Assembly (NCBI GenBank): GCA_001244265.2
Contig: LN717261.1
Span: forward strand, 2,867,591 to 2,931,590
From: Microbotryum violaceum
Lineage: Eukaryota
Direction of reading: 5' to 3'
Length of the DNA stretch: 64,000 nucleotides
Position numbers and translations under genes: made by a program
Shown: piece after piece, positions 1,450 through 49,900 of the stretch
How positions within the stretch are numbered: position 1 is the first letter of the stretch
Layout of the letters: each line of letters opens with the position of its first letter
Notes under the pieces: model-generated
Told to the model about the DNA's origin: nothing
Seen by the model: the letters and a program-made list of their open reading frames with translations, nothing else
Database searches by the model: none

Positions 1450-1690
1450 ACATGTAAGAAAATATCCTTACACATGAGTTAAGGTCAATACACAATCATC
1501 TTGGTATTGTAACATCAACATATAACTATTTCTGAATGGTGTCTGCAAGGACTACATGATAGCATGTGTATTGCAAGACTTGTAGTGATTCAAAATTTCT
1601 GTGTCCTTACCGCACCTCCCGTATCCTTACTGCACCCTCGTATCCTTACATGTGTCGACATGTGTAAGGATACGCCCGCGCGCGCACGTG
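1450..1690 (+). repeat. Left TIR of MULE copy 1
   Basis: ACATGTAAGAAAATATCCTTACACATGAG...CGCGCGCGCACGTG is the reverse complement of 13209-13460 apart from a few substitutions and a short indel. Confidence 0.9.
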
Positions 1691-2009
1691 ACATGCGTAA
1701 GGATACGCTCGCGCGCAAAGAGCACTGGCTGCTGCTGGTGAATAATTGACTCTTTCCGCACACCAGTGGTTGTCAAAGTATCGCCATGCCCATTTTTGCA
1801 CTAAGCTTAGTTATACATACTATTGCTGACCGCTATCATAGCCCCTACTGTACACTACATTAGTGATTGACAAGGCCAAAACTTCACTGGACCACTGGGG
1901 CACAACTTTGTGAGTCAAACTTGCCATCAACATGAATGTTCCCCACTGTGATTTCCTCCAGGAGCACTGCACCGCTGGAAAAAATTGTAAGAGGAGAGCA
2001 TCGTCAGCT

Positions 2010-3372
2010 CTATTGATCTGCTTTTTTGGCGTTCCCGACACTCACTATCTCGCATTCATGAAAAAAAGCCGGCGCATCTTCCATCTTCCAGACACCTTGT
2101 CCTTCTTCAAGAGTCCCTTCGGGTGGTAGACTTGACACTTTAATGCCGATATCGGTAGGATCGGAGGGCTCATGGTATAGACTCCACATTTCGTGCCACT
2201 GCCGCGTTAGCATTAGGTTGAAGGCTTGCAAGAAGTTCAATGACTCCTCTTCTAGCTCGTAGAAAAGAACGGAAACTAATCCGCCAGCGTTCCTGTCCCC
2301 TATCGGCCTAGCGAGAGAGCCTTTGATGGCGTCGAAATGATAGCATGCGGCCTCTTGCCCGTATCCAACCGTCGCGTTCGTAACGAAATGTGAATTGTTG
2401 ATGTTGTACACTCCTGACCGAAGGCGCCAGACCATCTCTGGCATTTGGTCCGAAACACCGAAGCGTAGCTCAGTTGGGGCCAGTGGATGTTCCGGGTAAA
2501 TATTGTTGATGTTGATCACAATCACACGGGGAAGCGAGGTGATTGAAACGAATTGCACGTAAGAGCCTCCGGTGCAATTGCGCTTGTGATGCCGACGGCC
2601 TGAGTTCTTTGCCTCTGTGTACAATTTCAACGGTTGCCCAACGATTGAGGCGAGGACGTCCGACAACGTTTCCAGCGAATGCGAAGGCAGGTGGAGACTT
2701 GAGATGAGAAGGGGCCAGTCAACCACAAATTGTCGTCTTTGGGACACCTCAATCTGAATGCAGTTGCAGGCAGTGCAATACCCGGCTCGTTGAAGATGTA
2801 ATTCGACGAGAGTTCGGTCGGGATCATTCAACGTGACAGCGCTTGGCAGAACCGGATGATCGACGGTGAACGAGTGAAGTGTCTCGAGCCAGGTCTGCCA
2901 AAAAAGTGATGATTAGCGTCCAGTTTTAATCGTCTTGGGAGGGCGGGGTTCGCTAAGTGATTGACTGACTACTGGGCTGCCTATAACTCCCCCGCTTAAA
3001 TGGAGTTGTAAAATGGCTTCCGCGCTCTTTCGACATCCCAACCACAGTGGAAATCATCCGTTCTCGTAATTGTGTGTATGCTTCAATTGCGTTCGCCGCC
3101 GGTTTCATATCAAACTTTCGAGCCAATGCTGTGTATTTGCGAATCACATCCCATAGCTCGAGTGCCAAATATCGAGGGCGGAGCCTCAACACCATCTCAT
3201 CGCCAAGTGGAGGAATTACATAGGCCGTATGGGTGTGGAGGATATCCAGACACTGCAGCCTTGGTTCCAATCCGTTGGCGACCGAGAGCAATGCCATAAG
3301 CGTTGAGTCAATCCAGCAAGAATTATCGCTCCACGGGCCTTGGATAATGACAACTGGCCCGTCTTCACCTGA
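2010..3372 (-). CDS. USP (peptidase C19-fold)-like cysteine protease region of the MULE, spliced
   Basis: Cys box WSDNSCWIDSTLMAL (Cys codon 3318-3316), CTAC zinc pair, LPRVIVINI, His box GVYNINNSHFVT (His 2390-2388), YHFD (Asp 2333-2331); intron about 2895-2970. Confidence 0.7.
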
Positions 3373-4024
3373 TCAAAGCCAGAAGTCTGCGTGGAGCTGC
3401 ACAATCGTGCTACCAAGCAATGTCGACGTCGATGTCTTGGGCGGAGCGAATTTTACCCTTGGTGCAGATCTAGAGTCCTCTGGGAGCTTGTCACTGGTGC
3501 GCTCGAGTGACGTCGACGTCGAAGCAGGTTTTGGCGTGGCGATTTCTACCTTTCTTGCAGATTTCGATGGCGCCAACTCCGACTTGGATGCAACCAGGGA
3601 CAGGGGAATGTCGAATACGGACGTACATGTCCTCTTTGCCTCCGATTGTGATTCAGGTTCCGACAAGAGGAAGGCCAATCGTTTTCGAGGTATCCGGTAT
3701 TTTCGACCACTGGGGGCTTCCAAATTTCGTGCATTGTGCTGCGCAAGAACTGTGAGACGGAGGATAAATCAGAGCAAGGATTCCGTCAGCCAGGTCTCAG
3801 CGCCTCTGCACTCAGTCAACAGTCTGGGGCGGAGGCGTACGTATTTGGGACAACTCCGTTTCTTCATTGAGCGCCCTCACAGCCATAGGGACAACGGGGA
3901 CTTGTCGCGGCCGCTGAAATCTGAGCGGGGAGGACTAGCTTTCGATTTGCAAGTGGACGTTTGATGGAGCTTGATGGAGCAATCCGTCGGGGAATGGCCT
4001 CGGATGAATTGCAATGAATTGAGT

Positions 4025-7000
4025 TGTTGCAACAAGGACTAAGAGGACTCCACGACTCAGCTCCGAGATACACGAGTGAGATGATGAGAATAGCGTGGAG
4101 AAGGAACCCAGAAGGAAAAAAGACGCAAAGACAAAGATAGGTGCGCGCGCAGAATAAAGTATTAACCAAGACTAATAGCAATTAGTTAGGCTCTGAGACC
4201 CCACTTCTAACACTCCCACCGGTCAAAGAGACTAACGAGACCATTCCAAGTAGCGCACGAAGTTGATCAAAGCGTTCCCAAAGGCTTCGTCATAATATCC
4301 GCGGCATTGACGTGGGTAGGGCAGTATTCAAGTTCGACCTCGCCAGAAGCAACCCGTTCTCGAACGAACAAATGAGCAATGTCAAAGTGCTTGGTTCGCA
4401 TGTGATCGACCGGATCCTTGGCGATCTGGATGCATGCGGCGTTGTCCTCTTGAATGATAGTAGGCTGTGCTTGTGGAATGCCGACATCACCAGCCAAACG
4501 ACGGAGCCAGATTGCTTCACGAGTGGCTGAGGAGGCTGAGGATGCAGAGAGGATTTCGGCTTCGGTAGTGGATGTAGCAATCATAGATTGTTGCTTCGAC
4601 CGCCAGGAGATAACGCCGCCAGCGAGCATTGATGCATAGGCTCCCACCGATCTGCGAGATTCCGGGTCATCCGCAAACGAGGCATCGGAGTAGACCATCA
4701 ATCGAGTTGTGGAACTGTTTCGATAAAGAATCCCCAAATCGATGGTGCTGTTGAGGTAGCAAAATATACGCTTGACCGCAGCCCAATCGTCGACAGTTGG
4801 ACAGAAGTTCTTTTGAGCAACGGCACGAACAGCAATTGCGATATCGGGTCGACATTGATTGGACGCGTACTGCAGGGAACCCACAGCCAATTGGTACAAT
4901 GACACATCGGCAAACGGAGTAGCATCGATTCGAACCGAGGGGCAATCGTCCATGGGCGTGACTGCACGGCGCTTGGATGGAGAAGCGAAATCGAACTTCT
5001 CGAGCATAGTGCGGACATACTTGCTTTGGTGAACGAGGATGTAATCTTTGGTGCGATGAATTTCGAAGCCCAGGAAGTAGGAGACGGGTCCGAGACGCTT
5101 GAGCTGGAAGGCCTTGTGAAGCGATCCGAGCTCGGAGTCCAAGAAGGACTGATTGTTGGACGCGATGAGACCGTCGTCAACATAGAGTGATGATAGCAGA
5201 CGAAGTGCCCAAATGTTTGATGTAGAGGCAACCATCGGCAGTTGCCCTCATGTAGCCTCGAGACACCATGAGATTGTTGACGGCTCGATACCATTCACGG
5301 GGCGCCTGTTTGGTGCCATACATGGAACCCACAAGCTTGAGGCACTTGCCAGGGGATTGAGGACGATTCCATCCTTTTGGGTATCGAACATAGACATCCT
5401 TGGTCATCTTGCCGTTGAGAAAGGCGCAGTCGAAATCAAACTGTTCGGGATACAGGCCCTGAGCAGCAGCCAGAGCAATCAAGAACAAAATCGTCGAAGA
5501 ACGAGCGACAGGAGCGTAGGTGTCATGGTAGTCGATGCCTGGGCGTTGAGCAAATCCTTGAGCAACGAGACGAGCTTTGAAACGAATGATTTTGCCGTTT
5601 GCATTGCACTGATACTGTAGACCCAGATCATGCCGAGTACCCAAATTCCTTCGTGCCACTTGACTTCCTGAAAGACTCCATGATGATCGAATTGTAGAAG
5701 TTCTGAGACCATTGCCGCACTCCAATGGTTGCGATAGGGTGACTTCATGGCTTCCTCGAATGTCTTGGGGTATCTCGATGTCTTCTTTGGCGAACACGGC
5801 AGCACAGTAGGCATCGTAGGAAAGCTTGTTGTGGAACATGGGTGGAGTATCCAAGACATCAACCATGATAGCCGAAATGATGGGAAGTATATTTTCCGGA
5901 GGTTGAGGTCGACGACGAGAACCAGCAGGAAGGATGTTGGAAGGATCAACATTCTCAAATTGGCCAGGATTTGGACCAGTGCGAACGATGGCGTAACCTT
6001 CACGAGGAGCGAGAGCGACTTCCGCCTCACCGTCGAGTGCTTCTTGAGGAACAACTGCAAGATACCCCCCCTGTTGACCAACTCCAATTGGAACCACCGG
6101 AGGAGGCTGTGGATCCGGCAAAGTTGGATCCACAACAGGTGAAGTTGGTGTAGACGGCAACACATCTGGCGGAGGATGAGGAGGATGAGGAGGTTGAGAA
6201 TGATGAACGGGATCAGAAGCGTCCGCACGATCTTGAGACGAAGTGACAACGGAAGGAGTCTCAAGGAATGTGACGTGACGCAAAACGTAGACCTGTTTCG
6301 AAGATTGGACCCAGAAACGGTAGTTGTATTCACCGGAGTACCCAATGAAAACTCCCTGAATGGAGCGAGGTGCAAGCTTGGAGCGACGCTCCTTGGGAAC
6401 GTGGACAAACGCCGTAGATCCGAATGGCTGAAGATGAGCAAGACTAGGCTTCTTGCCGAGAAGAACTTCGATTGCCGTTTTTCCTTGGATACGAGGATGT
6501 GGTTGACGATTGAGAACAAATGTCGCGACGGCCAGAGCATCTGACCAGAATCGCATGGGAAGACCGGAGTCGAGAAGCATTGATCGATCGAGACCCATGA
6601 GAGATCCATTGAGTCGCTCTACTTGACCATTTTGCTCCGGAGTATAGGGGGCCGTGAATTCCACGATGATGCCCTGCTTTTCAAGAAGAGCCCGGAACAA
6701 TGAATTGTCAAACTCACGACCATTGTCCGATCTGACCCTCTTGATTTTCTGACCCGTTTGACGCTCGGACTCGGCTTGAAATTTCGACCATGCTTCGATA
6801 ATCGTCTCAGCCCTCTTGTCCTTTAGCACGATCGTCCATTTAGCCGTCGAATACTGATCCACGATAGCGAGATAGATAGTATCGCCATGGTGATTGGGAT
6901 GTTCGACAAACCCGAGATCGATGAAGACGCGGTAGAGTGCATGAGGCGCTTCGGTACTCTTGTTGGAGAAGGGTGATCGCTTTGACTTGGCCTGGATGCA

Positions 7001-8753
7001 CGAGAAGCAAGGAGTAACCCTTTCGTCCTTCAGAGTGATGCCAGTGATAGTCCCGGATTTGACGGCCAAAACGATCGCCGCAGGAGATTGATGGCCCAAC
7101 TTCCGATGTGCTTCCATCAACGTACAGGTTCCAGTGAGACGATTGGCTCCGACCATTGAAGGCGGTGAGGATGACATGATAGGCTGAACGGGAGCTGCAT
7201 CCATGACAAACCCCCGACCAGGAAGCGAGCGCAGAATCGACTTGCCGCGGATGCTAAAAATGAGATTGCTTTGGGGACCAACAGCGTACGTCATCGATTC
7301 CAACAGACGGTCGATGGAGATAAAACCGCATTGAGCACCGGGCGTGTAGTAGACCCTCTTAATAGTGATACGAGCGCCATATGAGGTAAGAAACGTCACT
7401 GAGCCATGACCGGGAGATTCGATTTGAGATTGATCGGCGACAGAAATTTTGAGAGGCTCAGAGACAATGTCCGATAGGACCAACTTGTGTCCAACGCAAT
7501 GGGCCTTAGCACCCGAGTCAATGATCCATGGAAAACGTGGCATCGTTCGCGAATAGGGGAAAGTGTAGGTCATCAATGCAGATTCATCTACACCAATGGC
7601 AGCTACGTTTGAATTTGAGTCCGAGGAAGCGGGAGCGCTCGCATCCGTGTTCCTGCTTGGACAGAGACGCCAACCACGTTCGTGTCCCAGTGCTTTGCAG
7701 CGCGAACAATACGACTTGGAGTAGTCCTTTTGCGCCGTGGTGGAAATACGGGCAACGAGGCTAGTATTGTCAACGATCCGAGCGGATAACGATTCCTTTT
7801 GTTTGTTTCGGGAATCAGCCATTTCGACGTTCATCAGGAGTTTCGGATAGAACGTGTTCCAATCCATGTGGATGTCAATGTCGGAGGCAAGATTCCCAAC
7901 GATCGAGTCATACTGGGCTGGGAGCGACCGAACGAGCATGCCTGCAAACAGCCAATGCGGAAGCGGAGCTCCGAGGTTCTGAAAATCGGTCATGGCGATC
8001 TTGACCTTGTTGACGAATTCCTTAAAAGGAATATCCCCAGAGTAAGGTTGCGCTAGAGTGTTGAGGAGGTCCATAGTGCGACTCGGGCGACCGTGAGAGT
8101 GGAGACCACGGAGGGTGTCCCACATCTCGTACGCCGAGGTAAGATGAATCAAGTGAGACATCTGTTCCTCAGAGATCGAATTGGCGATGTACTTGCATGC
8201 CAAATCGTTGCGGCGGATGGCCCGTTCGCGATATTCCGCGACCTTGTCCGCAACTTGAACGCTGGTGAGCCTGGGCGAGGCGTCCGAGTGCGCAGAACCA
8301 GAGCCCCCCCCCCCAAGCCCGCTAAAGCCGGAGGAGGCTGGTTCAACTGGCGCGACGGACGCAGTTGCATGTGAGATAACGAGCGTGGACCGATAGTCCG
8401 CGACAAGGGAGTCGATGGATTGATTGACGACATCCCATAGTTTGTTGGCTCGAAGATTGATAAACGCACGTTGTGACCAGCTCTTGTACCCTTGTGTGTC
8501 CTTGAGATACAAGCGATTGCCCGACCCGTTGGGCAAGTCGGATTCGCCCGTTGAGCTCATAACCTGTTGCAACAAGGACTAAGAGGTACTCCACGACTCA
8601 GCTCCGAGATACACGAGTGAGATGATGAGAATAGCGTGGAGAAGGAACCCAGAAGGAAAAATGACGCAAAGACAAAGATAGGCGCGCGCGCAGAATAAAG
8701 TATTAACCAAGACTAATAGCAATGAGTTAGGCTCTCAGACCCCACTTCTAACA
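4025..8753 (-). mobile_element. Ty1/Copia LTR retrotransposon Copia-1 (frameshifted)
   Basis: LTRs 4025-4212 and 8565-8753 (TG..CA), PBS-like GGTTATGAGCTC next to the 5' LTR, purine tract GGTGGGAG next to the 3' LTR, order gag-PR-INT-RT-RH. Confidence 0.95.
4267..8575 (-). pseudogene. Copia-1 gag-pol polyprotein, broken by frameshifts in RT
   Basis: CSRCKALGH knuckle, WIIDSGAKAH protease, RSDNGREF/EQNGQVER integrase, KARLVAQG and YVDD RT, YSDASFA/ADIMTK RNase H spread over ORFs 5177-8575, 5479-6609, 4267-5235. Confidence 0.92.
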
Positions 8754-9314
8754 GGCGTCAATCCAACGTCGTCTGATGATTCGCTCGAACTATGCTCGTC
8801 AGACGGCGGGTCAGGAATCTTGCGCTTGTGGGGGTAATCAACACGTCTTGAGCCCTTTTTGGAGGCCATCAACTGCGCAGTGGGCCCATTGCCCTGCCTT
8901 GACCGGTTCTTTGGTTGCTGCCGGGAACGATATGACGTGGAAGGAGGTAATTTGGTTGATTCGCTCAGTGGTGGTGTTGCAGGACCCTTTGACAGGTCTG
9001 AAGGTCCTTGTGGTGACTCAGAAAACCCGATGCCAGCTAGACGAGCAGGTGCAGCGAACGAGATCGAAGGCTCAGGCATGTTGGCGTCACTGATGTAGGA
9101 TGAAGGTACCCGATTGCGTGACTTGATCTCTTTGATATTAGCGCGGACGTTGCCTTGCTCGTGATAAGTGCAACTCCTGACATAGCCGTCTGTTTTCAAA
9201 GCAAAGGCGAGAATGGTTTTAGATGAGGATAATGGGCTGGTGGTAACGCTATGCCAGGGCCTTACCGGTCGCATGACTTTCAATTCGGTCTGTCATTTTC
9301 GCGAAGTCGATAAG

Positions 9315-11369
9315 TCACATCACCCCTTCCACCGGTCCAAAGCGTTCGCCACCACATGAATGGATTAGGAGCCAGTGGGAAGATTCCACCGCATTTGTTG
9401 TGGTAGCCACGCATCTTTCTGCGGATCCATTGAGTTCCTTGAATACCACATTTCGAATCGCCGGTCGTGTCCACCATTTGATCCAATTCTCTGACACAGG
9501 AAACTCGTCGATTGTGCGCTTTGCTATGGACTCAATCGATGCATGGGACTTCGCGTTGCGCATGGTGTTGACCAGCATTGCAAATCGTTCGCGCTCCGTT
9601 TGCGTACTGAGATGTCGGACCCCGAACCTCCTGACCTGCTCAATGAAGTGAAAGGCGCACCCGCTTGCCGCCTTCTCGCCAATCTGAATAGCCTCTGCAG
9701 TCCACTGTGACACCTGATTGGGTGTGACGTTCAAGCGTCCCACATCTGCGGTCTTGCGTGCCACGTATCAATCCGAAATGGCTTGGCGAAGACCCGAAAT
9801 CTGCGCGCTTGAATAATCGACAACAAATGTGACTCCGTTGACGATGTCCTCCACGCTATAATTGGCATCGTCAAGAATCTGGAATAGGTGCGCAAAATGT
9901 CGGCGGTAGAAGCCCGATCGCTCGTGGTTGCCGACGGAGTACAGAATCGGAAACCAGCGACGAGCGCTTGGCGAATAGCAGACCGTGGCGAGCAACACCC
10001 AAATGTCGCGAAAGTAGGTGTTGTGAGCGTCGGTAGGCCATCCCAAATTGCCTTCGACTAGCCGGTCTTCAATCGTTTCCGAGAGCCTCGCTTTCATCTG
10101 AGGAGTCTGGATGCCAAATGACGTCTCAGAGTCGGTTAGCGAATTGGAGGTGATCTTCGACTTCGACCGCGACCCATCGTTCCTGGGTTGCTTCCGAGGG
10201 TCGGGATCGTGTATTAGCTCGGCAAGTGGCTGCCCTTGGCGCTGTCTCGGTATTTCGATGTACGCGAGGCAACCGGCATTGGCAACAGCTTCAATAGCTG
10301 ACATCAACGTGTCGGGTAGGGCTCCATTACGCTTACTGTGGCCCACTCTTGGTGCGTATCTCGAGATTGATCGAGTGCTGTCGAATACAGGGCAAATTTC
10401 AGAGGCGGACGGCCGATGACGAGGGTCCTGCGGAAATGCGGTCATTTGTCCCATGCGCAGCTCGGCGGCCGATGCTTGTGGAGCGCCTTTACGCAATTGT
10501 TGCAGCTCTTCCAGATGTTGCGGGGACGGACGCGACACCGGAGGCGGAGGATGCAAATGGTACCCTGAATGCCAGATATATATTTCCCCCGGGCATTCCT
10601 CACGCTGCCCTCGGGCAATCGTAGCGGAGCACAGGATGTGCCTCATCGGTCCGTTACAGCTTGTGATTGGACATGGCGGTAACTCGTCTGAAGGCCTCTC
10701 AACGTTTGGAGCGAGGTGCTTGCGGGTTGCAGCCTTCTTGGGGCGTCCTGTGACGAGCTGTGGAGTCTCCTCCTGAAACAACTTCGACCTACTCGCTGTC
10801 GACAGCGATGTGTGAGGTCGACGCTTGCCAGGGCATGATTGATCACAACAGACGAACACGCCCATGCAACGTCTTTTGATGTACTTGCTGTATTCGACGT
10901 TTGCATCCAAACGCGGCCTTTTCCATCGCCCTTTCGAATCGGTTCGAGATGATGACGCCAAGAAAGCCCACATGTGTGACAAGCCACCGCTCGAGCCTGG
11001 ATCCATACGAACAATGAGGACGCCGCCCCAAGTCCCGTTGGGCCGCCAAGGATCAAGAACAATCTCTTGTGGGTATGCTTCGAGCATCAAGTCCGTCATC
11101 GTTGTCCTTCCTTCACTATATGTTGGTAAATTCGCATGATCTTCACTGTTGACGAGCTTGTCATCCGTTGAATATGGTTCGGTGTTCGGACGTAGATTGC
11201 CGGAGATCCTGTCGCTTGGAGATGCTTCACGCTTTTCCCTGACAAGCAAGTTGTGCTTGGAAGCAGAAGGTGCGCCACTTGGAACAGGGGCATATACCCG
11301 GCCTTGAGGTCTTGTAGTGATATTTACGAATGGGAGTCGAGCCTTGATGTGCTCGTAGACCTGTGACAT
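9315..11369 (-). pseudogene. MULE-type DDE transposase with N-terminal GCM-like zinc finger; one in-frame stop
   Basis: RCMGVFVC...C...RRP...CPITSCNGPMRHILC...HSGYHLHPPP (GCM-like); TDAHN (D1), VVDYSSAQ (D2), CAFH (CxxH), TTNAVESSH (E); TGA at 9770-9768 is in frame with ORF 9315-9764. Confidence 0.85.
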
Positions 11370-11998
11370 TTGCAATCAAGAGTCAGCTCAGCGACTAAAG
11401 CTCAACGACGTAGAATCCGTCAACTCATGAAGCTATACGCACTCTCAAGGTAATGGTTGCTTCTGCTGGCGATGAGTCGATGTCGAGTACGAAGCCGGTT
11501 AACCCGAGAACCTTGTCCGAAGAGTCGGTCGCAGCAGTAAATGCTGCGAGTTGGTCGTACCGGCAGGAGGCAAGACATGGAGTCGAGTGAGTAGATGACG
11601 TAGCCGCGTTGTTGACCACCCAGTAGTCGAAGCAGGAGTCCTCTGTACAAAGGCACAGATAAGTCGCCGAATTAAACGGTTAGTAACTGGCTGAGTGGCC
11701 TGTCAACATTGCTTGGGAACCAATCTAATCTTGTCTTGCATACCTTGGAGAGCCAGGCCAGTTAGCTCAGCAACCTCTTCCAAAATATCTCGTAGATAGA
11801 CGAAACAATGTCCTGTCTCCGTGAAGTTGATGGACACCAACAGCGTAAATATCATCGGCACGTTAGTCGCCAAGAGAGGTTTCAAGGAAACCTCAGAGTT
11901 GACCATCAACACTAAGAAAGGCAAGCGGACAATATCAATTTCCAGTGAAGCCTTTTGTTAAGCAGGCTGGGAGAGCGCATGTTGATGTAAAAGTGCAC

Positions 11999-12160
11999 CA
12001 CCTATAGAGGTGGCAGCGGTAGTATGTTACGCAGCGCAGTGTCAGAACCGATAGTTGAGGAACACGTGATTGAAGTATTGCAACTAACCTATATAGGTGG
12101 CAGCGGTAGGATGATGCGCAGCGCAGTGTCAGAACCGATAGTCGAGGAACAAGTGATTAA
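11999..12160 (+). repeat. ~75-bp imperfect direct repeat (2 copies) inside the MULE
   Basis: CCTATA..GGTGGCAGCGGTAG...GCAGCGCAGTGTCAGAACCGATAGT.GAGGAAC..GTGATT occurs twice. Confidence 0.8.
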
Positions 12161-13208
12161 AGAAAAGATAAACAAGGGAGTCTGCTTTGCGAAGGCATAG
12201 GCCCACGCGCAAGACTATAATCCACTCAGACACTAAGTCTAATCCACTGCCTTAAAACTAATCGAGCCTCCGGGCGCGCGCCTCGCCTCGTTACCGATGG
12301 CCTACCATCTAGACAACACATGTGGCGTACCTTCAAGCTTAAGAGTCGTATGTTGATGCTTGGGGAGAATGGAGCTGTCCTTGGGAATAGCCTTGGGTTG
12401 TGAAACCCTTAGACGGGAGAGGTTCGGAGCTAAGGCTGGTGAAAGGGAGCCGACTTGGAGGCTAGAAGCGGAATTCACACTCTCAACACTGCTTTGACTG
12501 CGCAGCGACGGCCAACCAGGATCGCTGTTCTGGGAGCACAGGAGAGGCATCATTGACTTCTCTTGCTTGATAGTGTGGTGGAAGGGAGTGTCGTGGGCGA
12601 GCCAAGTGGAACAAGGTGAGTCATTGTCACGTCGTCCTTGTGATCGTTGTGCTTATCGTCCACATAATTGTCACAGTTCTCCTCGCAGTCCTCTGCGGAC
12701 TTGATGCGATTAGGCAAGTCGCTTGTACGATCGGTGATAGGAAATTCTCCTGTTGAAGTCGGGGATTTCGATAGCCGCGGTGCGGACACCGTGCAGGTCA
12801 ATGCTTTAGCTTGAAGGTCGCCAGAATCGTCCTGAGGATGCGCTGAGTTTGCCGACTCGGGGACCGACTGGCCGTTTCCTTTCCTGATTCGACGATTGGT
12901 TCCTACCGTTGATTGGCGTTTGATGCTTGGGACTTTGAATCTCGACTTGGGAGTCCGCCATCGGGGCCGGTCTCCAGCTCCAGAACGAGTCCGAGCCCAG
13001 GGCCCGGCGTCACGGTCGGGAAGTTGGCGGTTCCGCAATCTCATTGATGAAAGATTTGAGTCCGTGCCTGCTGGCACAAAGCTGGAGGTCGCAATTGGCT
13101 GGTTCGCAAAAGTGAAACAGTGCCACGGTGTTGACGTCGATGGGCGGTGTGGGGACAATCAGGTGAACAAAGGCTTTGAGCTGAGTGCGCCTCCTGTCGT
13201 TCCACATG

Positions 13209-13460
13209 GCACGTGCGCGCGCGGGCGTATCCTTACACATGTCAACACATGTAAGGATACGAGGATGCGGTAAGGATACGGGAGGTGCGGTAAGGACACA
13301 GAAGTTTTGAATCACTACAAGTCTTGCAATACACATGCTATCATGTAGTCCTTGCAGGCGCCATTCAGAAATAGTTATATGTTGATGTTACAGTATCAAG
13401 ATGAACAGATTTGGTTGTGTATTGACCTTAACTCATGTGTAAGGATATATCCTTACATGT
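13209..13460 (-). repeat. Right TIR of MULE copy 1
   Basis: Reverse complement of 1450-1690; ends in the palindrome TGTAAGGATATATCCTTACA. Confidence 0.9.
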
Positions 13461-26932: not shown

Positions 26933-29900
26933 TGTTGAGGTAGATTACTCTTGCCTTAAATCTGCCTAGCGCGCGTCTCTATTTGTATTAGCCGCGCGGT
27001 CCAATCACGTCTTTCCTTCTTCTTCTCCACTTGATTACGAACTCATTGGCTTGCCACTGCCGCCAACTTGTTCAGGTGTGTGAAGAACTCCTTTATTGCA
27101 ATCTCACTTGATTACGAACTCATTGGCTTGCCACTGCCGCCAACTCGTTCAGCACATCGCTGTTCGACTTCTACAGGTTACGAGCCCAACGTAGCGGCCC
27201 AGCCAACTCGAGTCATCAAGTCATCATGCCCGGTGATACGGACACTGTGGTATCAGGGGGAACAACCTCTATCGTCTATGTCAAACCCGCGATATCGACC
27301 CGTCATGCCACCTGCGCAACGCGGGAGGCTGGTCGCAATGGATCAACGACGTCCGTGGAGCTCTCGGGGCGACTATTGGAACTGCACGCTTGCGACGCCC
27401 ATTCAGAAACCCAACGCGCGCACCGACCTGGAGCACGCCAACTTCCAAGCGATCGCGCTCTTGAGGCGCTCGGTCTCCCTCAACATCAAGAAGCAGATCA
27501 AAGATGGATTCGATCACACTCCCACCGACGTCTTGAAGATGATCAAGAAAGCGGTCGCAGCAGGCACAGTCACCGACATCTTCATCAAGCTCCAAGCCCT
27601 GCTCGATGCGGGTCCGCCTCCCTCCGGTGTCGACGCGTTCGAGAAGTACCAAGCCAACACCATTGAGCTGTTTAACACTCTTTCGGGATACAACCTTACC
27701 TTTGACCAGGTCATCTCGATACGCTTGATCCACTTTGGCAAGGACCTCTACAAGGAGTACTATACTCAAGCGCTCCGTCAAGACCTCGACAAGCTCCCTG
27801 ATCCGATTGAAGCGCTTCAAACGCTTCAGACTCAAGCTGAATCCACGCCGGCACACAAGCCCGTGGCGATGGTAGCTAGCTTGACCGCGACGGACAGATC
27901 TTCATCGACTCCGTCAGCTCCGTGCCGACACAGCTCCGTGCCGACACTGTGGAGGTCCTCACTGGAATCGAAAATGCCCCGTCAAGGACAAGAAGTCCAA
28001 GGCCTCCTCCGCGCCGTCCGCATCACTCGCCGCTGCTCCCGACATCTCGACGTTGGTAGACGGCCCGGTCCGCGGATACCTCACCGCAGCGATGTCCACA
28101 TTGGCCAAACCTTCCCTCATCCTCGACAGCGGCGCGACGCATCACATCGTCAACGATCGCGCTTGTTTCACCAACTTCCGCAAGTGCAAGCCTGCTCCGC
28201 TCGAGGGCATCACGGGCGAGGCGGTCAATTCGATCGAAGGCGTCGGTTCCGCTGTCGTTCGCTCCTTCGACGGCAGCATTGGCCAACTCCACCACGCGTT
28301 GTTCGTCCCCAGCGCGCCGGTCAGCCTCTTCTCCGCCAGTCGCGCCAACGCCGCGGGCTACAACATCAACCTTTCCCGAGGCAAAGCAACGGTCTCAGTC
28401 GACGGGTCGATTTGCCACACCGGGGAGATCACAAACGGCTTGTACCACATGCATGCTTCCCTAGTCGACGTCACTACTCTCATCGAGCAACCGGGTGCGT
28501 CCCCACGTGCGTTTGCGGCCGTCCCCGTCTCCATCATGCACGGACGTTTCGCTCACCTTCACCCACGCGCTCTACGACAGCTGATCTCAACTGAGGCTGT
28601 GCTGGGAGTCAACATGGAGGTAGCATTGAACGCAGACTTGAAATGTGATACATGCCAGGCTGGGAAGATCACACATCACCCTTTCCCCACCGTCGCGTCG
28701 AATCGTTCAGCCCAGCCTCTTGATCGAGTCCACATGGACCTTCTTGCGTTCGACAGCGCCGTGTCGTTAGGCGGCGCAAAATACGCCCTCGTCATTGTCG
28801 ATGATTACACCCGATATCTCTGGGCAATTCCGATGTCGCACAAGTCCGATACCTTTGCGGCCTTCAAGTCGTGGCTTGCAAAGGTCGAGCGCTCCTCGTC
28901 GAGAAAACTCCTGGCAGTCCGCTCCGACAACGGTGGTGAATTCTTGTCGAACGAGTTCTCGAGCTTCCTGGAAGAACAAGGCATCACTCGTCAGCTTTCG
29001 ATTCCCGATGCCCCTCAGCAAAACGGGGTTGCCGAACGCGCAAATCGCTCAATCACCGAGGGTGTCCGATCAATGCTCCACCAGTCGGGTCTATCTCACG
29101 CTTTGTGGGCCGAGGCATTGGCAACATATGTCTACGTCAAAAATCGCTCACCACACTCGGCAAATTCAGGCGTCACACCACACACGCGTTGGCACGGATC
29201 AAAGCCGTCAGCCGGCCATCTCCGCGTATTCGGCTGCAGAGCGTGGAAGGCAGCTACCACCGAAGCGCGCAGCAAACTCGATCCGCGGGGCATTCCACTC
29301 GTATTCGTCGGCTACGATCTCGAATCCAAGGGATACCGACTGTTTGACCCCGCTACCAGACAAGTTTTCAAATCGAGCAGCGTCACATTCTTCGAGGACG
29401 AGTTCCCAGCCAGGCGGGAGGGCATCACAGCAGCTCACGCGCCCGTCGCAGGCGACGACGACGACGACGACGACAACGATGACGAAGTCGTTGTACTCCC
29501 TGACCAGCATGCCAATCAGGTACCCCCGACCAAGCGGAGCTTCCGGCTGCTTTACGTTTCGACGCACCGGGGCCCGCGTGGCAGCCACCCGTGGGTTCGC
29601 GCCCGCGCAACCCCCCAGCTCGTTACGGCGCCCTCGCATCTTTGCGCTCGACCCCTTCTGCCTTCGCATTCTCTCTAGGCAAGGAGGTAACCGAACTTGT
29701 TGCTGATCTCGACGCGGCGGGCATTGACACCTCGACGGCGAATCGACCGCTCTCGGAACCAGAGGACCCGTTCTCGCTCCCGAGCAGTGATCCCACCATG
29801 TGGAAAGAGGCCATGCGCCATCCTCACGCCGTGGCATGGAAAGCGGGAGCCATTGAGGAATTCCGCTCGATGAAAGACGATCTCAAGGTGTTCAGCGTCG

Positions 29901-31601
29901 TCGGACTATCCTCCGTGCCCAAAGGAGCTACGATCTTACCAAGTCGTCACGTCTTTTGAACCAAACGCGACAAAGCCGGGAAGATGGTTTCACTGAAGAA
30001 CCGCATTGTTGCACAGGGCTGCGCACAAGGCCCAAACAGCTTCAACAACACCTTCTCACCCACGGCTAAGTACACCTCCATCCGCACGCTCATCGCGCAC
30101 TCGGCCTCAAAGGGCCACCACATCATTCAAGCCGACGTTGACAAGGCCTATCTTCACGGTGTGCTGGAGGAGGAGATCTACATGCGGGTTCCAACTGGCA
30201 TCGAAGGCTACGAAGGCAAATGCCTCCGCCTTCATCGATCGATCTACGGTCTCAAGCAGGCAGGTCGAGTGTGGAACAACACGATCAACACCACGCTCGC
30301 GAGTCTCGGCTATCGTCGCCTCGCCTGCGACGAATGCATCTATCGTCATGAGGACGCTGGGGGTGATCACTACATTGCACTCTACGTCGACGATCTACTC
30401 TTCTTTGGGCCGGATCTCGGGGAAATCGATCGAGTCCTTGACCAACTCGACACCCTCTACGGAGTCAAACGCCTCGGCCCGGCCGAATGGGTACTCGGGG
30501 TTCAGGTCGTACAACACGACGATGGCGGGATCTCCCTTCTCCAGCGTCAATACCTCCTTGACGTCTTGGATCGCTTCAACATGTCCGACTGCAACCCCTG
30601 CAAGTCACCCATGGAAGCCAACCTACAGCTTTCGCCGGAACCCGATACAGACTCCGCCGACAATGCCATCTACCGTTCCATGATCGGCTCACTCATGTAC
30701 GCTGTTGTTGCCACTCGCCCTGATCTAGCCCACTCCGTCGGATATCTGTCACGTTTCGTCGGCAAGGCTGGCGACACTCACCTCGAGGCGGCCAAGCGCG
30801 TCCTTCGTTACATCAAAGGATCGCTCGATCTTGGCATACACTACACGCGCACCAGTGCGCCTCTGCTGGGGTACGAGGGGTACTCTGACTCGGACTGGGG
30901 ATCGGACATACAGACGTCGAGGTCCACTATGGGTTACTTGTTCAAACTGGCGGGTGGGGCCATCTCATGGTCATCTCGTCTCCAACCTCGCGTAGCTTGT
31001 TCATCCACGGAAGCGGAGTACCTGGGCCTCTCGCATGCAGCCAAGGAGGCTGTCTTCCTTCGCTCGCTCCTCACCAAACTCGGTCTCGATACGTCGTCCC
31101 CTTTACGTCTTCTCGGGGATAACCAGGGAGCTATAGCGCTCACCCAGAATCCGGTCTTCCACGCTCGCACCAAACATTTGCGCATGTTGGAGCATTTCGT
31201 TCGGGAGCATGTTCGGAATGGAGAGATCTCGGTCACCTACATCCCAACCCACAATATGGTTGCCGACATTTTCACCAAGCCGCTGCCGCGAGTAGTCTTC
31301 CAGCGTCATTGTGACGCCATCGGTCTGCGCCGCATTTCAGGCCAAGAGCAAGGGGGGGTGTTGAGGTAGATTACTCTTGCCTTAAATCTGCCTAGCGCGC
31401 GTCTCTATTTGTATTAGCCGCGCGGTCCAATCACGTCTTTCCTTCTTCTTCTCCACTTGATTACGAACTCATTGGCTTGCCACTGCCGCCAACTTGTTCA
31501 GGTGTGTGAAGAACTCCTTTATTGCAATCTCACTTGATTACGAACTCATTGGCTTGCCACTGCCGCCAACTCGTTCAGCACATCGCTGTTCGATTTCTAC
31601 A
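26933..31601 (+). mobile_element. Ty1/Copia LTR retrotransposon Copia-2, near full length
   Basis: 243-bp LTRs 26933-27175 and 31359-31601 differing at one site seen; TSD TGTCT; PBS-like GGTTACGAGCCC 27176-27187; purine tract before the 3' LTR. Confidence 0.97.
27226..31369 (+). pseudogene. Copia-2 gag-pol, frameshifted with a premature stop
   Basis: ILDSGATHH, RSDNGGEF, QQNGVAER, DVDKAYL, YVDD, YSDSDW, ADIFTK; 16-bp duplication at ~27915-27946, TGA at 29957-29959. Confidence 0.93.
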
Positions 31602-32547
31602 TGTCTGACAACCAAGGGTCAGACGTCGCTCCGCAACTTGGCCATATACGGGACGAAAGGCCATTGATCCTTCGATGGTATGGCTCATGGATCCAGCGCG
31701 GTCGGCGCCGCCTGCGAGTCCCCACTCGGCGATCTTGATCGCCTCGTCATAGACGAGCAACTTGACGCGCTCTCGAAAGGACTCGTTAGAGATCAACTTT
31801 GCCAATCTGCATTGTTGATATGCATTTCAGGAGACTTGACACGCAGTAAACAGGAAGGAAAATCAACACATGTGCACTTCACTCAAACAGGAGGTCAACC
31901 GGCACATACGATCAGAATGAAGGAGATCGTGTGATTGGGGGCGTCCAACTGCCTGTACAGCTCGCCGTCTCTCCAAGTCTCCTCAGATACCACAACCGCT
32001 TTCTTTCCCTGTCGATTGAGATTGGCAGCCTGAAAGAAGCATATGACTACGGAAATCAGCACGGATGTCGGTCCAGCAAGCCCAGTCGGCAGAAAAACTC
32101 ACCTGATGATTGCTCAGTGCATTCAGTGGACTGAGAACAATGGTGACGGCCCGGCGTCCATAAATGAGATACATTGCTTCGAAAATAACACTTTTGCCTG
32201 AACCTGTTGGCGCTGTGACGAACACAGCGTCATATCGATCCCGGCTCCCAAATTGATCAAGTTCGAAAAGTGCTGCAATGGCTTCGATCTGCACAGGCCG
32301 GGGGGTAGAGTCCTCGTCAAGACTTTCGCCCAGAATAACTTTGATCTTCTTGCGTAGTTCGCTGGAACCTCGTCGGTCCTCGTGAGTCAAACGTGGCCTC
32401 CAGTGACCAAGAACGGTTGTCGGATTGGTTGAATGATTCGGGTCGTAGGACTGGCCCTTGAAGCTGATCGCAAGGGAGACGCCCTGAACTCAATTGATGG
32501 ATGTCGACAGGCGGTCTCCTAACCAGCCTGGGTGTTTGTACCGACAT
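31602..32547 (-). pseudogene. RecQ-like helicase of AcademH, N-terminal part
   Basis: PRPVQIEAI (Q motif), APTGSGKS (Walker A), LSPLNAL (Ia), LLVYDEAIKIAEWG..FRPVY (motif II + aromatic loop); reading frame resumes across the Copia-2 TSD. Confidence 0.85.
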
Positions 32548-33215: not shown

Positions 33216-34892
33216 AGCCCCCTTCCCAGCCCAATCTCGAGTATCGGCAGCTTCTTGAAGGCTCGGATAGCGGTCAGTTGCTCCGTCCAACAACATTCGT
33301 CTGCAGTAGACCCACATGCTGAATTGTGCGATGCACCTACACAGACGCTAAAGCATTCCGCGAGAATGCCCGGTCTTACAATAACGCGTTGTCCTTTACT
33401 TCGCTCGCTGACCTCTGGGACCAAACCCAAGTGGGCACGCTAGGACCCCCGTGTTTCGCGTGTTCGGCCGCCTCTATCATCGACTCGGTGCCCTGATCCC
33501 TGCCGTGAATCAACGCCCAGCCTTTGCCCAGACATGGCTGATCGACCCGGCCGAGGCCACCGACACACGACTTCAAGGACCCGACAGCGCAGAGACTCGC
33601 ATTCAAAGATCAACGCTGACCAAGCTCGAGTCCATGTTGCGCACCGGCAATCGCTTTGTGAGGGAGTTCGCATCGGCCAAAGCCCGCGCGGGTTGGGATA
33701 CGGCCAAAGAGTGGGTCCTGCGCCTCTGCCTACCACCAGGCCGAGACCGACGCACCCACAACCTTCCTACGTCGAGCACGGAAATGGCGATGCTTCTCTG
33801 CGATTCCGACACCAACACGGGAGATCGTGGACCTCAAGACCGTATTCTCCAGGTGCACGGTGGTCGATGTCCCGATGGTCGGCCCCAGGTACCAAGTCAT
33901 CAGCTCGCTCCATCCGTCTGCGTTGCCTCTCCGGTAGCCACTACTATTTCCTGCAGGGGAAGATGGCTTCCACCCCAACATTTCTCTTTGCGGGTTTCGC
34001 CAAGCTGGGCTGCCAATCACTAGAAACCGAGAGCAGATCGACAATGGTGTCCAACCGCGCGAGGTACTTGCCGGTCTCGGCCTTGCTGACGAAGGCGAAG
34101 AGGAGGACGAAGACTGTGACGATGAGGATGAAGACGGCGGGGGACGAAAAGAATGGTGATGGTGAACGTACGCGTCTTCGGCTCTTTCTCGGATGCTCCA
34201 TTCTGTTCAAGGCGCAAGCACAGACTGACATTGAACTTTTGAACACCTAGGACGAAGGCCAAGTAAAGGGGTCGAGGTGGTGAGTCTCGCGTTCACAATT
34301 CTTTGCGCACTAATTGCCAAACGCGACGAGTACTTCTCAATCCCGCATTGCACCCAGCATCCCTTCCTGGAGTTTGTGATTTACGGATATACTCCCAAGT
34401 CGAGACCGATTGACTCAACACATCCGGTTGCATCAAGAGAACCTACGTCTCACCACGACCCAAGGCATCAACGGCTTGACCCCAAACCCAATTGGACGTT
34501 TGATGACTTTGGGCTCGACGTTCGAGAATAGACCGTGCGACATCACGCAGCGATACCAGGATGCGATGGCGTGCGTTGTGAAACATGGAAAGCCTCCACT
34601 GCCCATCACGATGACGTACGACCCCGAAGCACCGGAATTCAAGGCTGCACTGGGGCTGAATGACAAAGCATGCACCCGTCCGGATCTCATTGCGCAAGTG
34701 TTTGAAGCCAAATCCGGCAACAAGCGACATGCAGGCTGTTTCGGCGATGAATGTAGGATGAATGGATTTGTTTCTTTGCTGTACTTCGTAGGGTGTTTTC
34801 TTAACCTCTGCGCTGAGATCATGTAGACTGTTCGATTATCCTGCTTTTCTTTTGAATTTGATCCTCCCGTTAATTTAACGGGTTCCCACTGG
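33216..34892 (+). mobile_element. Non-autonomous Helitron derivative, copy 1 (5' truncated)
   Basis: Rep N-terminal motifs GPPVFRVFGRLYHRLG, FAQTWLIDP, YQDAMA..GKP..ITMT, RPDLIAQVF; 3' hairpin CCCGTTAATTTAACGGG then CTGG|T. Confidence 0.85.
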
Positions 34893-36400
34893 TGTAAGGA
34901 TATATCCTTACACATGAGTTAAGGTCAATACACAATCATCTTGGTATTGTAACATCAACATATAACTATTTCTGAATGGTGTCTGCAAGGACTACATGAT
35001 AGCATGTGTATTGCAAGACTTGTAGTGATTCAAAATTTCTGTGTCCTTACCGCACCTCCCGTATCCTTACTGCACCCTCGTATCCTTACATGTGTCGACA
35101 TGTGTAAGGATACGCCCGCGCGCGCACGTGACATGCGTAAGGATACGCTCGCGCGCAAAGAGCACTGGCTGCTGCTGGTGAATAATTGACTCTTTCCGCA
35201 CACCAGTGGTTGTCAAAGTATCGCCATGCCCATTTTTGCACTAAGCTTAGTTATACATACTATTGCTGACCGCTATCATAGCCCCTACTGTACACTACAT
35301 TAGTGATTGACAAGGCCAAAACTTCACTGGACCACTGGGGCACAACTTTGTGAGTCAAACTTGCCATCAACATGAATGTTCCCCACTGTGATTTCCTCCA
35401 GGAGCACTGCACCGCTGGAAAAAATTGTAAGAGGAGAGCATCGTCAGCTCTATTGATCTGCTTTTTTGGCGTTCCCGACACTCACTATCTCGCATTCATG
35501 AAAAAAAGCCGGCGCATCTTCCATCTTCCAGACACCTTGTCCTTCTTCAAGAGTCCCTTCGGGTGGTAGACTTGACACTTTAATGCCGATATCGGTAGGA
35601 TCGGAGGGCTCATGGTATAGACTCCACATTTCGTGCCACTGCCGCGTTAGCATTAGGTTGAAGGCTTGCAAGAAGTTCAATGACTCCTCTTCTAGCTCGT
35701 AGAAAAGAACGGAAACTAATCCGCCAGCGTTCCTGTCCCCTATCGGCCTAGCGAGAGAGCCTTTGATGGCGTCGAAATGATAGCATGCGGCCTCTTGCCC
35801 GTATCCAACCGTCGCGTTCGTAACGAAATGTGAATTGTTGATGTTGTACACTCCTGACCGAAGGCGCCAGACCATCTCTGGCATTTGGTCCGAAACACCG
35901 AAGCGTAGCTCAGTTGGGGCCAGTGGATGTTCCGGGTAAATATTGTTGATGTTGATCACAATCACACGGGGGAGCGAGGTGATTGAAACGAATTGCACGT
36001 AAGAGCCTCCGGTGCAATTGCGCTTGTGATGCCGACGGCCTGAGTTCTTTGCCTCTGTGTACAATTTCAACGGTTGCCCAACGATTGAGGCGAGGACGTC
36101 CGACAACGTTTCCAGCGAATGCGAAGGCAGGTGGAGACTTGAGATGAGAAGGGGCCAGTCAACCACAAATTGTCGTCTTGGGGACACCTCAATCTGAATG
36201 CAGTTGCAGGCAGTGCAATACCCGGCTCGTTGAAGATGTAATTCGACGAGAGTTCGGTCGGGATCATTCAACGTGACAGCGCTTGGCAGAACCGGATGAT
36301 CGACGGTGAACGAGTGAAGTGTCTCGAGCCAGGTCTGCCGAAAAAAGTGATGATTAGCGTCCAGTTTTAATCGTCTTGGGAGGGCGGGGTTTGCTAAGTG

Positions 36401-41594: not shown

Positions 41595-42632
41595 GATTGA
41601 CTGACTACTGGGCTACTATAACTCCCCGCTTAAATGGAGTTGTAAAATGGCTTCCGCGCTCTTTCGACATCCCAACCACAGTGGAAATCATCCGTTCTCG
41701 TAATTGTGTGTATGCTTCAATTGCGTTCGCCGCCGGTTTCATATCAAACTTTCGAGCCAATGCTGTGTATTTGCAAATCACATCCCATAGCTCGAGTGCC
41801 AAATATCGAGGGCGGAGCCTCAACACCATCTCATCGCCAAGTGGAGGAATCACGTAGGCCGTATGGGTGTGGAGGATATCCAGACACTGCAGCCTTGGTT
41901 CCAATCCGTTGGCGACCGAGAGCAATGCGATAAGCGTTGAGTCAATCCAACAAGAATTATCGCTCCACGGGCCTTGGATAATGACGACTGGCCCGTCTTC
42001 ACCTGATCAAAGCCAGAAGTCTGCGTGGAGCTGCACAATCGTGCTACCAAGCAATGTCGACGTCGATGTCTTGGGCGGAGCGAATTTTACCCTTGGTGCA
42101 GATCTAGAGTCCTCTGGGAGCTTGTCACTGGTGCGCTCGAGTGACGTTGACGTTGAAGCAGGTTTTGGCGTGGCGATTTCTACCTTTCTTGCAGATTTTG
42201 ATGGCGCCAACTCCGACTTGGATGCAACCAGGGACAGGGGAATGTCGAATACGGACATACGTGTCCTTTTTGCCTCCGATTGTGATTCAGGTTCCGACAA
42301 CAGGAAGGCCAATCGTTCTCGAGGTATCCGGTATTTTCGACCACTGGGGGCTTCCAAATTTCGTGCATTGTGCTGCGCAAGAACTGTGAGACGGAGGATA
42401 AATCAGAGCAGGATTTCCGTCAGCCAGGCCTCAGCGCCTCTGCACTCAGTCAACAGTCTGGAGCGGAGGCGTACGTATTTGGGACAACTCCGTTTCTTCA
42501 TTGAGCGCCCTCACAGCCATAGGGACAACGGGGACTCGTCGCGATGGGCCGCTGAAATCTGAGCGGGGAGGACTACCTTTCGATTTGGAATTGGACGTTT
42601 GATGGAGCTTGATGGAGCAATCCGTCGGGGAA

Positions 42633-46690: not shown

Positions 46691-47129
46691 GACAGCGCGG
46701 GCGGTGGTACCCACTTGTCGAAATCGCTCTGGGTAAACGATGTGCCGTCAATCCTGGCGCGTTGATAGGCTTTGTCACGGGAGACGTGGGCGGCGACGAG
46801 GTCCTCAAACAACCAGTTGAAGTTCGCAAGCCATGGGTCAAGCGCTTTGCCGTCGACAAATGGCTCACACAAGAAGAGGGTGTCAATCCAACGTCGTCTG
46901 ATGATTCGCTCAAACTATGCTTGTCAGACGGCGGGTCAGGCATCTTGCGCTTGTGGGGGTAATCAACACGTCTTGAGCCCTTTTTGGAGGCCATTGACTG
47001 CGCAGTGGGCCCATTGCCCTGCCTTGACCGGTTCTTTGGTTGCTGCCAGGAACAATTTGACGTGGAAGGAGGTAATTTGGTTGATTTGCTCAGTGGTGGT
47101 GTTGCAGGGCCCTTTGACAGGTCTGAAGG

Positions 47130-49355: not shown

Positions 49356-49900
49356 GAAGGTCCTTGTGGTGACTCAGAAAACCCGATGCCAGCTAGACGA
49401 GCAGGTGCAGCGAGCGAGATCGAAGGCTCAGGCATGTTGGCGTCACTGACGTAGGATGAGGGTACCCGATTGCGTGACTTGATCTCTTTGATACTGAACA
49501 ATCAGATGATTGAAGACGACTTCAACATCTCGCCATTGCTCGCCAAAGTCCTCGAGGAGAGTGGCTTCGCCGAACAACGGGCGGCCAAGATGGACGTGGA
49601 TGATTTCCTCAAGTAAGTCCATCGTCGTCCCACGGTTTCCGAGGAAGGCCATGAAGCTGACGTGTCGTTGGTTCACTCTTCGCCTAGGCTGCTGACCATC
49701 TTCCACAAGTATCATCTTCACTTTGCGTGAGAAAGGCGCTGGCCCTCACTTGCTCTCTGCTTTCGTCGTTCTTCTTTCTCAGTTCGTCGGAAACCGGCTG
49801 TTGTACTGCATTATATCCTTTTGGTTTTACTAAGTTTGCGAAACTTCAATAACGAAAGCTGTCTTCACTGTGTGTGACCTCTTGACGTGTGGGTGACCCC

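Follow-up and report, generated by a model that had tools for sequence, protein, structure and literature searches.

The window analysed here, 64,000 nucleotides of the Microbotryum violaceum genome (contig LN717261.1, positions 2,867,591 to 2,931,590), is a repeat-rich stretch from the anther-smut fungi, and positions 1450–13460 of it are one decayed copy (copy 1) of a DNA transposon family known so far only from Microbotryum. Copy 1 is bounded by terminal inverted repeats (TIRs) and holds a gene on the - strand. In intact relatives a single gene model covers a GCM-like zinc finger, a DDE transposase core and a C-terminal domain with boxes like those of ubiquitin-specific proteases (USPs). 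As judged from these models, the putative protease is the C-terminal domain of the transposase and not separate cargo. The best explanation for the locus is probably a Mutator-like element in which one gene encodes finger, DDE core, linker and a USP-like protease that would act on conjugates of ubiquitin or ubiquitin-like proteins.

Structure of the element and its gene

A reading made earlier from the letters alone (the sequence-only reading) had proposed a TIR-bounded DNA transposon at 1450–13460, and the termini bear this out. Two pairs of inverted arms, 1496–1703 with 13197–13404 (208 nt, 94% complementary) and 1450–1498 with 13412–13460 (49 nt, 94%), are merged by blastn into a single 264-nt alignment at 91%. 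The resulting TIRs of ~255 bp, at 91–94%, compare with the about 100 bp or more used as the long-TIR criterion of Mutator elements. The 9-mer GTAAGGATA occurs 16 times in the window, every time within one of three TIR copies; with 0.13 occurrences expected and a count of 16 reached by none of 100 shuffles, its clustering in the TIRs is not a matter of chance. Two 76-bp direct repeats (12000–12162, 91% identical, 87 bp spacing) lie ~100–250 bp upstream of the ATG of the gene and could be promoter or binding-site repeats.

The sequence-only reading was also right about the positions of the motifs on the - strand. Open frames 9768–11375 (535 amino acids) and 9315–9767 (150 amino acids), which share one reading frame with a stop between them, carry the GCM-like finger and the DDE core, and frames 2953–3372 and 2010–2912 carry the protease motifs NSCWIDS, SHF and YHFD, with the Cys, His and Asp codons where they had been placed. 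Its view of the protease as downstream cargo is contradicted by two proteins of intact relatives from Microbotryum silenes-dioicae, P0012 (1561 amino acids) and P0013 (1513 amino acids), which were retrieved by a search for longer proteins with the frame of the Cys box. Each has all of the domains in one gene model, in the order N-terminal exons, zinc finger (residues ~285–395), DDE core (~560–765), low-complexity linker and protease; the protease residues of P0012 are Cys 1152, His 1436 and Asp 1455. By tblastn, P0012 is colinear with copy 1 from 11906 to 2013, and, read against P0012, the frame is unbroken over the junction 8754/4023 that is left when a nested Copia retrotransposon is taken out.

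Five GT..AG introns were placed on copy 1 from the gene models and a sixth from contigs of public runs (Table 1). Contigs of four such runs (X1, X2, X6 and X8) were compared over 1704–4024. Those of X2 and X6, which are presumed to be RNA by guess only, skip 2895–2969 and 1975–2045, both of them GT..AG pieces on the - strand, and those of X1 and X8 retain 2895–2969. Joining over intron 5 reads SYSSPV/TWLE, identical to P0012. Intron 6 was overlooked by the public gene models, as P0012 and P0013 end in ...VSVGNAKKADQ by read-through into the intron. The X2 and X6 contigs splice 2046 to 1974 and so gain a short, Cys-containing last exon (window 1927–2045), like the tails of P0007 and P0008 (RC...SC). 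A conserved basic motif, YRIPRKR, lies in exon 5 at ~3711–3646.

Table 1. Features of copy 1 and copy 2 in the window
Feature	Position	Strand	Basis or remark
Copy 1, full-length but dead	1450–13460	gene on -	TIR pair; colinear mapping of P0012
Left TIR	1450–1703		palindrome-like terminus TGTAAGAAAATATCCTTACA; arm with 5 copies of GTAAGGATA
Right TIR	13197–13460		5 copies of GTAAGGATA
Exon 1	11744–11906	-	ATG 11906–11904; tblastn of P0012/P0013
Intron 1	11743–11643	-	GTATGC..ACAG
Exon 2	11443–11642	-	tblastn of P0012/P0013
Intron 2	11442–11361	-	GTGCGT..CACAG
Exon 3: N-terminal region, GCM-like zinc finger, DDE core	9266–11360	-	TGAs at 9768–9770 and 9315–9317
GCM-like / WRKY-GCM1-type zinc finger	10521–10910	-	RCMGVFVCCDQSC ... 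CPITSCNG ... GYHLHPPP
DDE catalytic core	9384–10031	-	residues read by inspection
Intron 3	9265–9190	-	gene model
Exon 4, first part: low-complexity linker	8754–9189	-	interrupted by Copia
Nested Copia long terminal repeat (LTR) retrotransposon	4025–8753	-	Pfam RVT_2, rve, gag, SH3_retrovirus; LTR pair
Exon 4, second part	3841–4023	-	frameshifts ~3908, ~3988
Intron 4	3840–3750	-	predicted from gene model only
Exon 5: linker end, YRIPRKR, Cys-box half of putative protease	2970–3749	-	TGA 3375–3373; extra base 2979/2980
Putative catalytic Cys codon TGC (NSCWIDS)	3316–3318 (3318–3316)	-	
Intron 5	2895–2969	-	GTCAGT..GGCAG, 75 nt; missing from X2 and X6 contigs
Exon 6: CxxC, LPRVIVININN, His box, Asp, LFYELEE	2046–2894	-	reading frame and alignments
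Putative catalytic His codon	2390–2388	-	exon 6
Putative catalytic Asp codon	2333–2331	-	exon 6
Intron 6	1975–2045	-	GTGAGT..TCCAG, 71 nt; missing from X2 and X6 contigs
Last short exon, 15 codons and stop in copy 1	1927–1974	-	1-nt difference from other copies at 1941
Copy 2: left TIR, protease, part of linker	34893–49493	-	blastn pieces
LINE-like insertion in copy 2 (long interspersed nuclear element)	36404–41594		
Copia-like insertion in copy 2	42633–46878		
Small LTR element in copy 2	47131–49355		

The residues of the DDE core, read by inspection, are D at 10031–10029, D at 9818–9816 and E at 9386–9384, with a further E after strand 3 (9923–9921), a CxxH motif at 9659–9648 and a W at 9473–9471. 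Their spacing, likewise taken by inspection and not scored, is D-71-D-56-H and D2-144-E, with the W 29 residues before the E. Muta1 has D214, D283, H307, W401 and E419 in the passages of PMC5225508 that describe it, so that the distance from the second D to the E is 144 here versus 136 there. The Glu after strand 3 and the His after strand 5 agree with the MULE/TnpA core (MULE, Mutator-like element) as outlined in parts of PMC1702500.

For the zinc-finger region the only family listed by Pfam is GCM (PF03615), at E 0.35 with the whole open reading frame (ORF). The 180-residue region 10521–11060 gives E 0.035 and 14.5 bits in two stretches, the best on profile positions 36–58 of 140; the cut-off is 25, and the gathering threshold is not reached. 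A PDB sequence search with the zinc-finger region matched no GCM structure. The GCM finger named earlier is therefore kept as the sole family listed, at a score below the cut-off.

We describe the element as Mutator-like with a GCM-like finger on motif-level evidence because no transposase family, MULE and IS256 included, appears in scans of Pfam (E up to 10) and NCBIfam, because a PDB sequence search with P0013 gave nothing relevant to the transposase, and because no target-site duplication is present in the 10 bp to either side of the two termini of copy 1, the sole complete copy, whose flanks may be rearranged. The profile scans and the flanks speak against a Mutator assignment, and of the Mutator-like transposase proposed earlier it is the residue spacing and the TIRs that stand. 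An affinity to KDZ or CACTA elements was dropped, as Pfam gave no KDZ or CACTA match and the termini do not start with CACTA. GCM-type MULEs of rust fungi, which the sequence-only reading mentioned, were not shown by sequence or literature searches.

Two other readings of this architecture have to be weighed. The transposase might belong to another or undescribed DDE superfamily, for instance one close to hAT, which we regard as unlikely: the missing Pfam MULE or Transposase_mut match, the 8–11 bp target-site duplication that is not seen and the occurrence of CxxH and W in hAT (as given in parts of PMC5225508) would fit, but the Muta1-like D2–E distance, the long TIRs, a finger of WRKY-GCM1 rather than BED type and Pfam scans that reported no hAT dimerisation domain all argue for a Mutator-like element. 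Still less probable is that the element carries two genes, one for the transposase and one for the protease, and that the single gene models are annotation artefacts. The models do come from automatic annotation, and some related ones (P0005 and P0007) are plainly chimeric; moreover, the sole contig over the model-based intron 4 (3840–3750), from X2, is unspliced, and among the contigs compared there is no record that covers both halves, two points that count against one gene. However, there is no ATG between linker and Cys box, the frame from linker to protease is open in other copies (CGA at 3375), P0012 and P0013 are two independent models in agreement, and P0001 and P0003 extend from the transposase far into the linker.

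The C-terminal domain and a probable USP fold

As a USP reference we used 46 non-redundant ORFs from giant-virus contigs, fetched with a Cys-box pattern, all 46 of which match PF00443. The order of the triad is Cys-His-Asp in both, with C-284-H-19-D in P0012 and spacings of 285 and 17 in the reference (C51, H336, D353). A relaxed hhalign alignment of the family to the 46 USPs is collinear over 326 columns and sets in register the Cys box, a degenerate QxD box, CxxC, SLPRVIVININN (on LPxVLxIxLKRF), the His box, YHFD and LFYELE.

The triad is conserved among relatives. His, Phe and Asp are invariant in six of six aligned proteins, and the Cys is kept in all five database proteins that cover the site and in both copies in the window. 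A second subfamily (P0007–P0009) keeps Cys, His and Asp; its two full-length members are 45–48% identical to P0015, and the fragmentary P0009 is 39% identical. Between the subfamilies the protease aligns at 44–53%, and the linker aligns only in two short pieces (22 and 47 residues). The USP-like boxes of the C-terminal domain, with Cys, His and Asp kept in a second subfamily less than half identical, bear out this part of the sequence-only reading. Its statement that the protease retains the triad holds for the residues and not for a working enzyme in the window, where both copies are pseudogenes.

Searches of the ESM Atlas point in the same direction. With P0008 as the query, eight of ten rows of the structure search are USP-type families (PF00443, PF13423 and PF15499), with template-modelling (TM) scores of 0.40–0.50 by query and, by row, as much as 0.65 across 244–255 aligned residues. 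For the likeness of the Cys box to USPL1/CYLD that the sequence-only reading proposed, there is one weak, USPL1-like row (TM 0.44). In the feature search with P0015, 17 of 30 matches carry PF00443 and the other 13 carry no family.

Several results weigh against a USP assignment. When hhalign compares the family with the USP profile, the result is non-significant (probability 0.3; E and P both 0.18–0.2). With the USP hidden Markov model, family members score between +2.8 and -3.3 bits, P0008 obtains no score, and the real P0012 domain is equalled or surpassed by 38 of its 500 shuffled versions. Because the profile tests are non-significant and the model score lies within the range of shuffles, homology to USPs is not demonstrated. 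None of the 13 scanned frames and database proteins that bear the protease is assigned UCH, UCH_1 or C98 by Pfam at E up to 10, and the family profile has no match among all PDB sequences at E up to 10. Two AlphaFold2 models have a mean predicted local distance difference test (pLDDT) of 30.8 and 31.5 and no usable fold, and Foldseek with the first gave no meaningful match. In the Atlas, where one third of shuffled proteins obtain ten concordant family matches, the model of P0008 has a pLDDT of 0.49 and a TM score by query never above 0.50, and the first named feature match of P0015 shares 164 features, below the 170 mark of the tool. The 22 protease variants, taken from the 40 of 130 differences that were listed and compared with a decayed copy, comprise 9 synonymous and 13 non-synonymous changes, too few and too biased a set to show constraint. 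The USP fold that the sequence-only reading asserted is accordingly not established by any statistical or high-confidence structural test, whether Pfam, PDB, hhalign, the hidden Markov model, AlphaFold2 or Foldseek.

These same results, the profile tests, the low-confidence AlphaFold models and the behaviour of shuffled proteins in the Atlas, would fit a chance resemblance, with the Cys, His and Asp motifs lying in a lineage-specific domain that has some other role. We consider this unlikely. The alignment places five or more USP boxes in the correct order, the Cys–His and His–Asp spacings are almost exactly those of the reference, the triad is conserved across subfamilies at 45–48% identity, and two queries this far apart both lead to USP families, one by features and the other by structure. 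A USP fold for the C-terminal domain, statistically unproven, is likely in our judgement, and that intact copies encode an active enzyme is somewhat less so.

Copies, relatives and neighbouring elements

Copy 1 is interrupted by the nested 4.7-kb Copia, three in-frame TGA stops and at least three frameshifts, and neither the transposase part nor the protease part is free of stops and frameshifts. In relatives, the TGA at 9768–9770 is Trp and that at 9315–9317 is Arg; the TGA at 3375–3373 is Arg in relatives and CGA (Arg) in all four public runs compared. The change that created this last stop sits in a TCG context, which parts of PMC10502011 and PMC12730594 describe as the target of a process like repeat-induced point mutation in Microbotryum. 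The frameshifts lie at ~3988, ~3908 and 2979/2980: relative to other copies, copy 1 lacks one G at the first and GATG at the second, and an extra base shifts its frame at the third.

The Copia, which the sequence-only reading did not mention, separates the transposase part of copy 1 from the protease part. In Pfam scans of all frames and of the database relatives, the Copia alone gave matches. Its LTRs (4025–4212 and 8565–8753) are 97% identical, its pol is frameshifted, and a clear 5-bp target-site duplication was not seen at its flanks. Contigs of three of the four runs (X1, X2 and X8) go straight from 4023 into the sequence at 8754, and other copies therefore lack the Copia. Different Copia-type insertions lie ~30 bp apart in the same stretch of linker (window 3994–4025), at 4023/4025 in copy 1 and at the equivalent of 3994 in copy 2 (42632–42633).

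Copy 2 survives in four pieces (34893–36403, 41595–42632, 46879–47130 and 49356–49493) and lacks the transposase and the right TIR. The small element at 47131–49355 has direct terminal repeats of 167 bp, which are 97% identical, encloses an inverted repeat of 416 bp and is inserted with a GAAGG(T) duplication. Copies 1 and 2 differ by 44 substitutions, 32 of them transitions, of which 12 are in a T[C/T]G or C[G/A]A context. One, G>A on the + strand at 3316, changes the Cys codon from TGC to TGT, the synonymous difference that had been noted before. Identity between them is 99.5% across the left 1.5 kb (1453–2962 versus 34893–36403) but 95.6–97.8% in the other shared pieces, and both have the TGA at 3375–3373 where all four public runs have CGA. 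The near-identity of the left 1.5 kb and the common TGA suggest that a copy which was already dead underwent local duplication or gene conversion.

All named relatives are proteins of M. silenes-dioicae or M. saponariae. An exhaustive phmmer search with a 300-residue C-terminal frame against 1.84 billion representatives gave seven matches, five of them family members (P0005–P0009); the other two, P0010 and P0011, are repeat proteins that we took as spurious. A protein search restricted to the region of the DDE core yielded 8 copies among 1226 candidates, all of them from Microbotryum, and among 593 pattern matches in metagenomes tblastn found no relative. In the models of P0005 and P0007 the protease follows straight after the N-terminal exons of the element, with the transposase left out. 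They may represent non-autonomous derivatives that retained the protease after an internal deletion, or else chimeras created by annotation.

Elsewhere in the window, a repeat at 33219–34892 and 58720–60347 (89% identity) contains what we take to be Helitron-like coding sequence. The first copy ends in a hairpin (CCCGTTAATTTAACGGG) plus ..CACTGG, directly adjoining the first T of the terminus of copy 2; after the other copy comes TTTTTATATA. Two direct repeats of 246 bp, 99% identical and 4.4 kb apart, mark 26933–31604 as probably a young LTR retrotransposon.

Proposed function and relation to known systems

An intact element would have ~255-bp TIRs with GTAAGGATA repeats and one multi-intron gene of roughly 1,560 codons. 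Its predicted product begins with an N-terminal region, the GCM-like finger and a DDE/RNase-H core (D, D, CxxH, W, E), followed by a low-complexity linker of roughly 330 residues with a basic motif, YR(I/V)PRKR, resembling a nuclear localization signal, and ends in a domain of roughly 350 residues with USP-like thumb, fingers and palm boxes and a Cys...His...Asp triad. We hypothesize that the finger recognizes the TIRs through their GTAAGGATA repeats, taken here as transposase binding sites, and that the DDE core performs cut-and-paste transposition. YR(I/V)PRKR, which is conserved between the subfamilies, may serve nuclear import, and the C-terminal domain, as an active USP-fold isopeptidase, would reach the nucleus as a passenger of the transposase. 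It would most likely serve to strip the transposase, or chromatin or silencing factors at the element, of ubiquitin or a ubiquitin-like modifier, and it may additionally cut itself free of the polyprotein. Protection of transposition proteins against degradation has been argued for Helitron-encoded deubiquitinases in parts of Erven et al. 2022 (PMC9741609), and polyprotein processing has been suggested for fusions of MULE transposases with OTU domains in parts of Babu et al. 2006 (PMC1702500).

Self-processing could instead be the main job of a real USP-fold protease, which would act in cis on the ~1,560-residue polyprotein to free the transposase, with no deubiquitination of host or transposon proteins. 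The fusion itself fits such a role, as does the long, poorly conserved linker between two conserved domains. A protease that processes its own polyprotein in cis is familiar from coronavirus PLpro. The published suggestion for MULE-OTU fusions (in parts of PMC1702500) is the same idea. A conserved Gly-Gly-type site was, however, not seen in the linker (by eye, with no formal search), and we find exclusive cis processing doubtful compared with a protease directed at ubiquitin or ubiquitin-like conjugates.

Plant KI-MULEs and CACTA/Zisupton elements carry Ulp1 (C48) SUMO proteases. These are likewise DNA transposons with a protease for a ubiquitin-like modifier, but its clan and residue order differ, and profiles of C48, like those of OTU, were not listed by Pfam at E up to 10 in the protease-bearing frames and proteins here. 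In the relevant parts of PMC5751038, fungal DNA transposons were screened for accessory domains, with C48 and OTU as the proteases among them. Also close in architecture is the Medicago truncatula MULE-OTU (parts of Babu et al. 2006, PMC1702500), which also combines a WRKY-GCM1-type finger, a Mutator core and a C-terminal papain-like protease in one protein. In contrast, the protease here has no OTU signature or Pfam match, the host is a fungus and not a plant, and the residue order is Cys...His...Asp with ~284 residues from Cys to His, as in USPs.

The VTD and OTU deubiquitinases of Helitrons and Helentrons, as presented in parts of Erven et al. 2022 (PMC9741609), similarly place a deubiquitinase-type domain within a eukaryotic transposition protein. 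Those elements are rolling-circle, the VTD fold has an Asp-x-His site and activity was shown by assay, whereas the activity of the domain described here is predicted. Canonical USPs (PF00443) and the SUMO-specific, USP-fold USPL1 (PF15499) share with it the order of boxes, the triad spacing and a CxxC finger motif; unlike canonical USPs, it has NSCW(I/L)DS in place of GNTCYMNS as the Cys box, a degenerate QxD box and a single Cys for the second CxxC. Muta1, MuDR and Hop (as covered in parts of PMC5225508) share the DDE/CxxH/W spacing, long TIRs and an N-terminal zinc finger, but the present protein is ~3x longer, with an added linker and protease, is not recognised by Pfam and has no duplication at the complete copy.

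Mutator transposase–OTU fusions are already published (PMC1702500, in the parts cited above), and the element here differs from them in the USP-like domain and the fungal host. Targeted literature searches for a USP/C19 domain or a deubiquitinase in a transposon or transposase turned up no USP-type domain; they did not cover Repbase, where an entry is possible. They found no paper that pairs 'Mutator-like' with 'ubiquitin carboxyl-terminal hydrolase', and neither a MULE survey (PMC6446971) nor a preprint (10.1101/2021.09.26.461848) contains the words ubiquitin, peptidase or protease.

For annotation, a ~1,560-residue, multi-copy protein without any Pfam match is a caution, and repeat libraries of fungi are therefore likely to list such elements as unclassified. 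More than once, transposons and viruses have acquired proteases directed at ubiquitin or SUMO, among them Ulp1, OTU, VTD and adenain-type enzymes, and a USP-type domain in frame with a cut-and-paste transposase would be a new protease class on that list. We offer as a tentative possibility, on the doubtful side, a fungal Mutator-like lineage with a very divergent but active USP-fold isopeptidase that is needed for transposition, together with a true GCM-type finger outside animals. If this is true, the finger would indicate a transposon origin for the GCM transcription factors of animals, and Mutator elements would have recruited a ubiquitin or SUMO protease independently once more, after OTU and Ulp1. 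The isopeptidase would then stabilize the transposase or reverse ubiquitin- or SUMO-dependent silencing at the element, and the family would provide a compact, one-protein system for asking whether deubiquitination, deSUMOylation or self-processing is needed for mobility.

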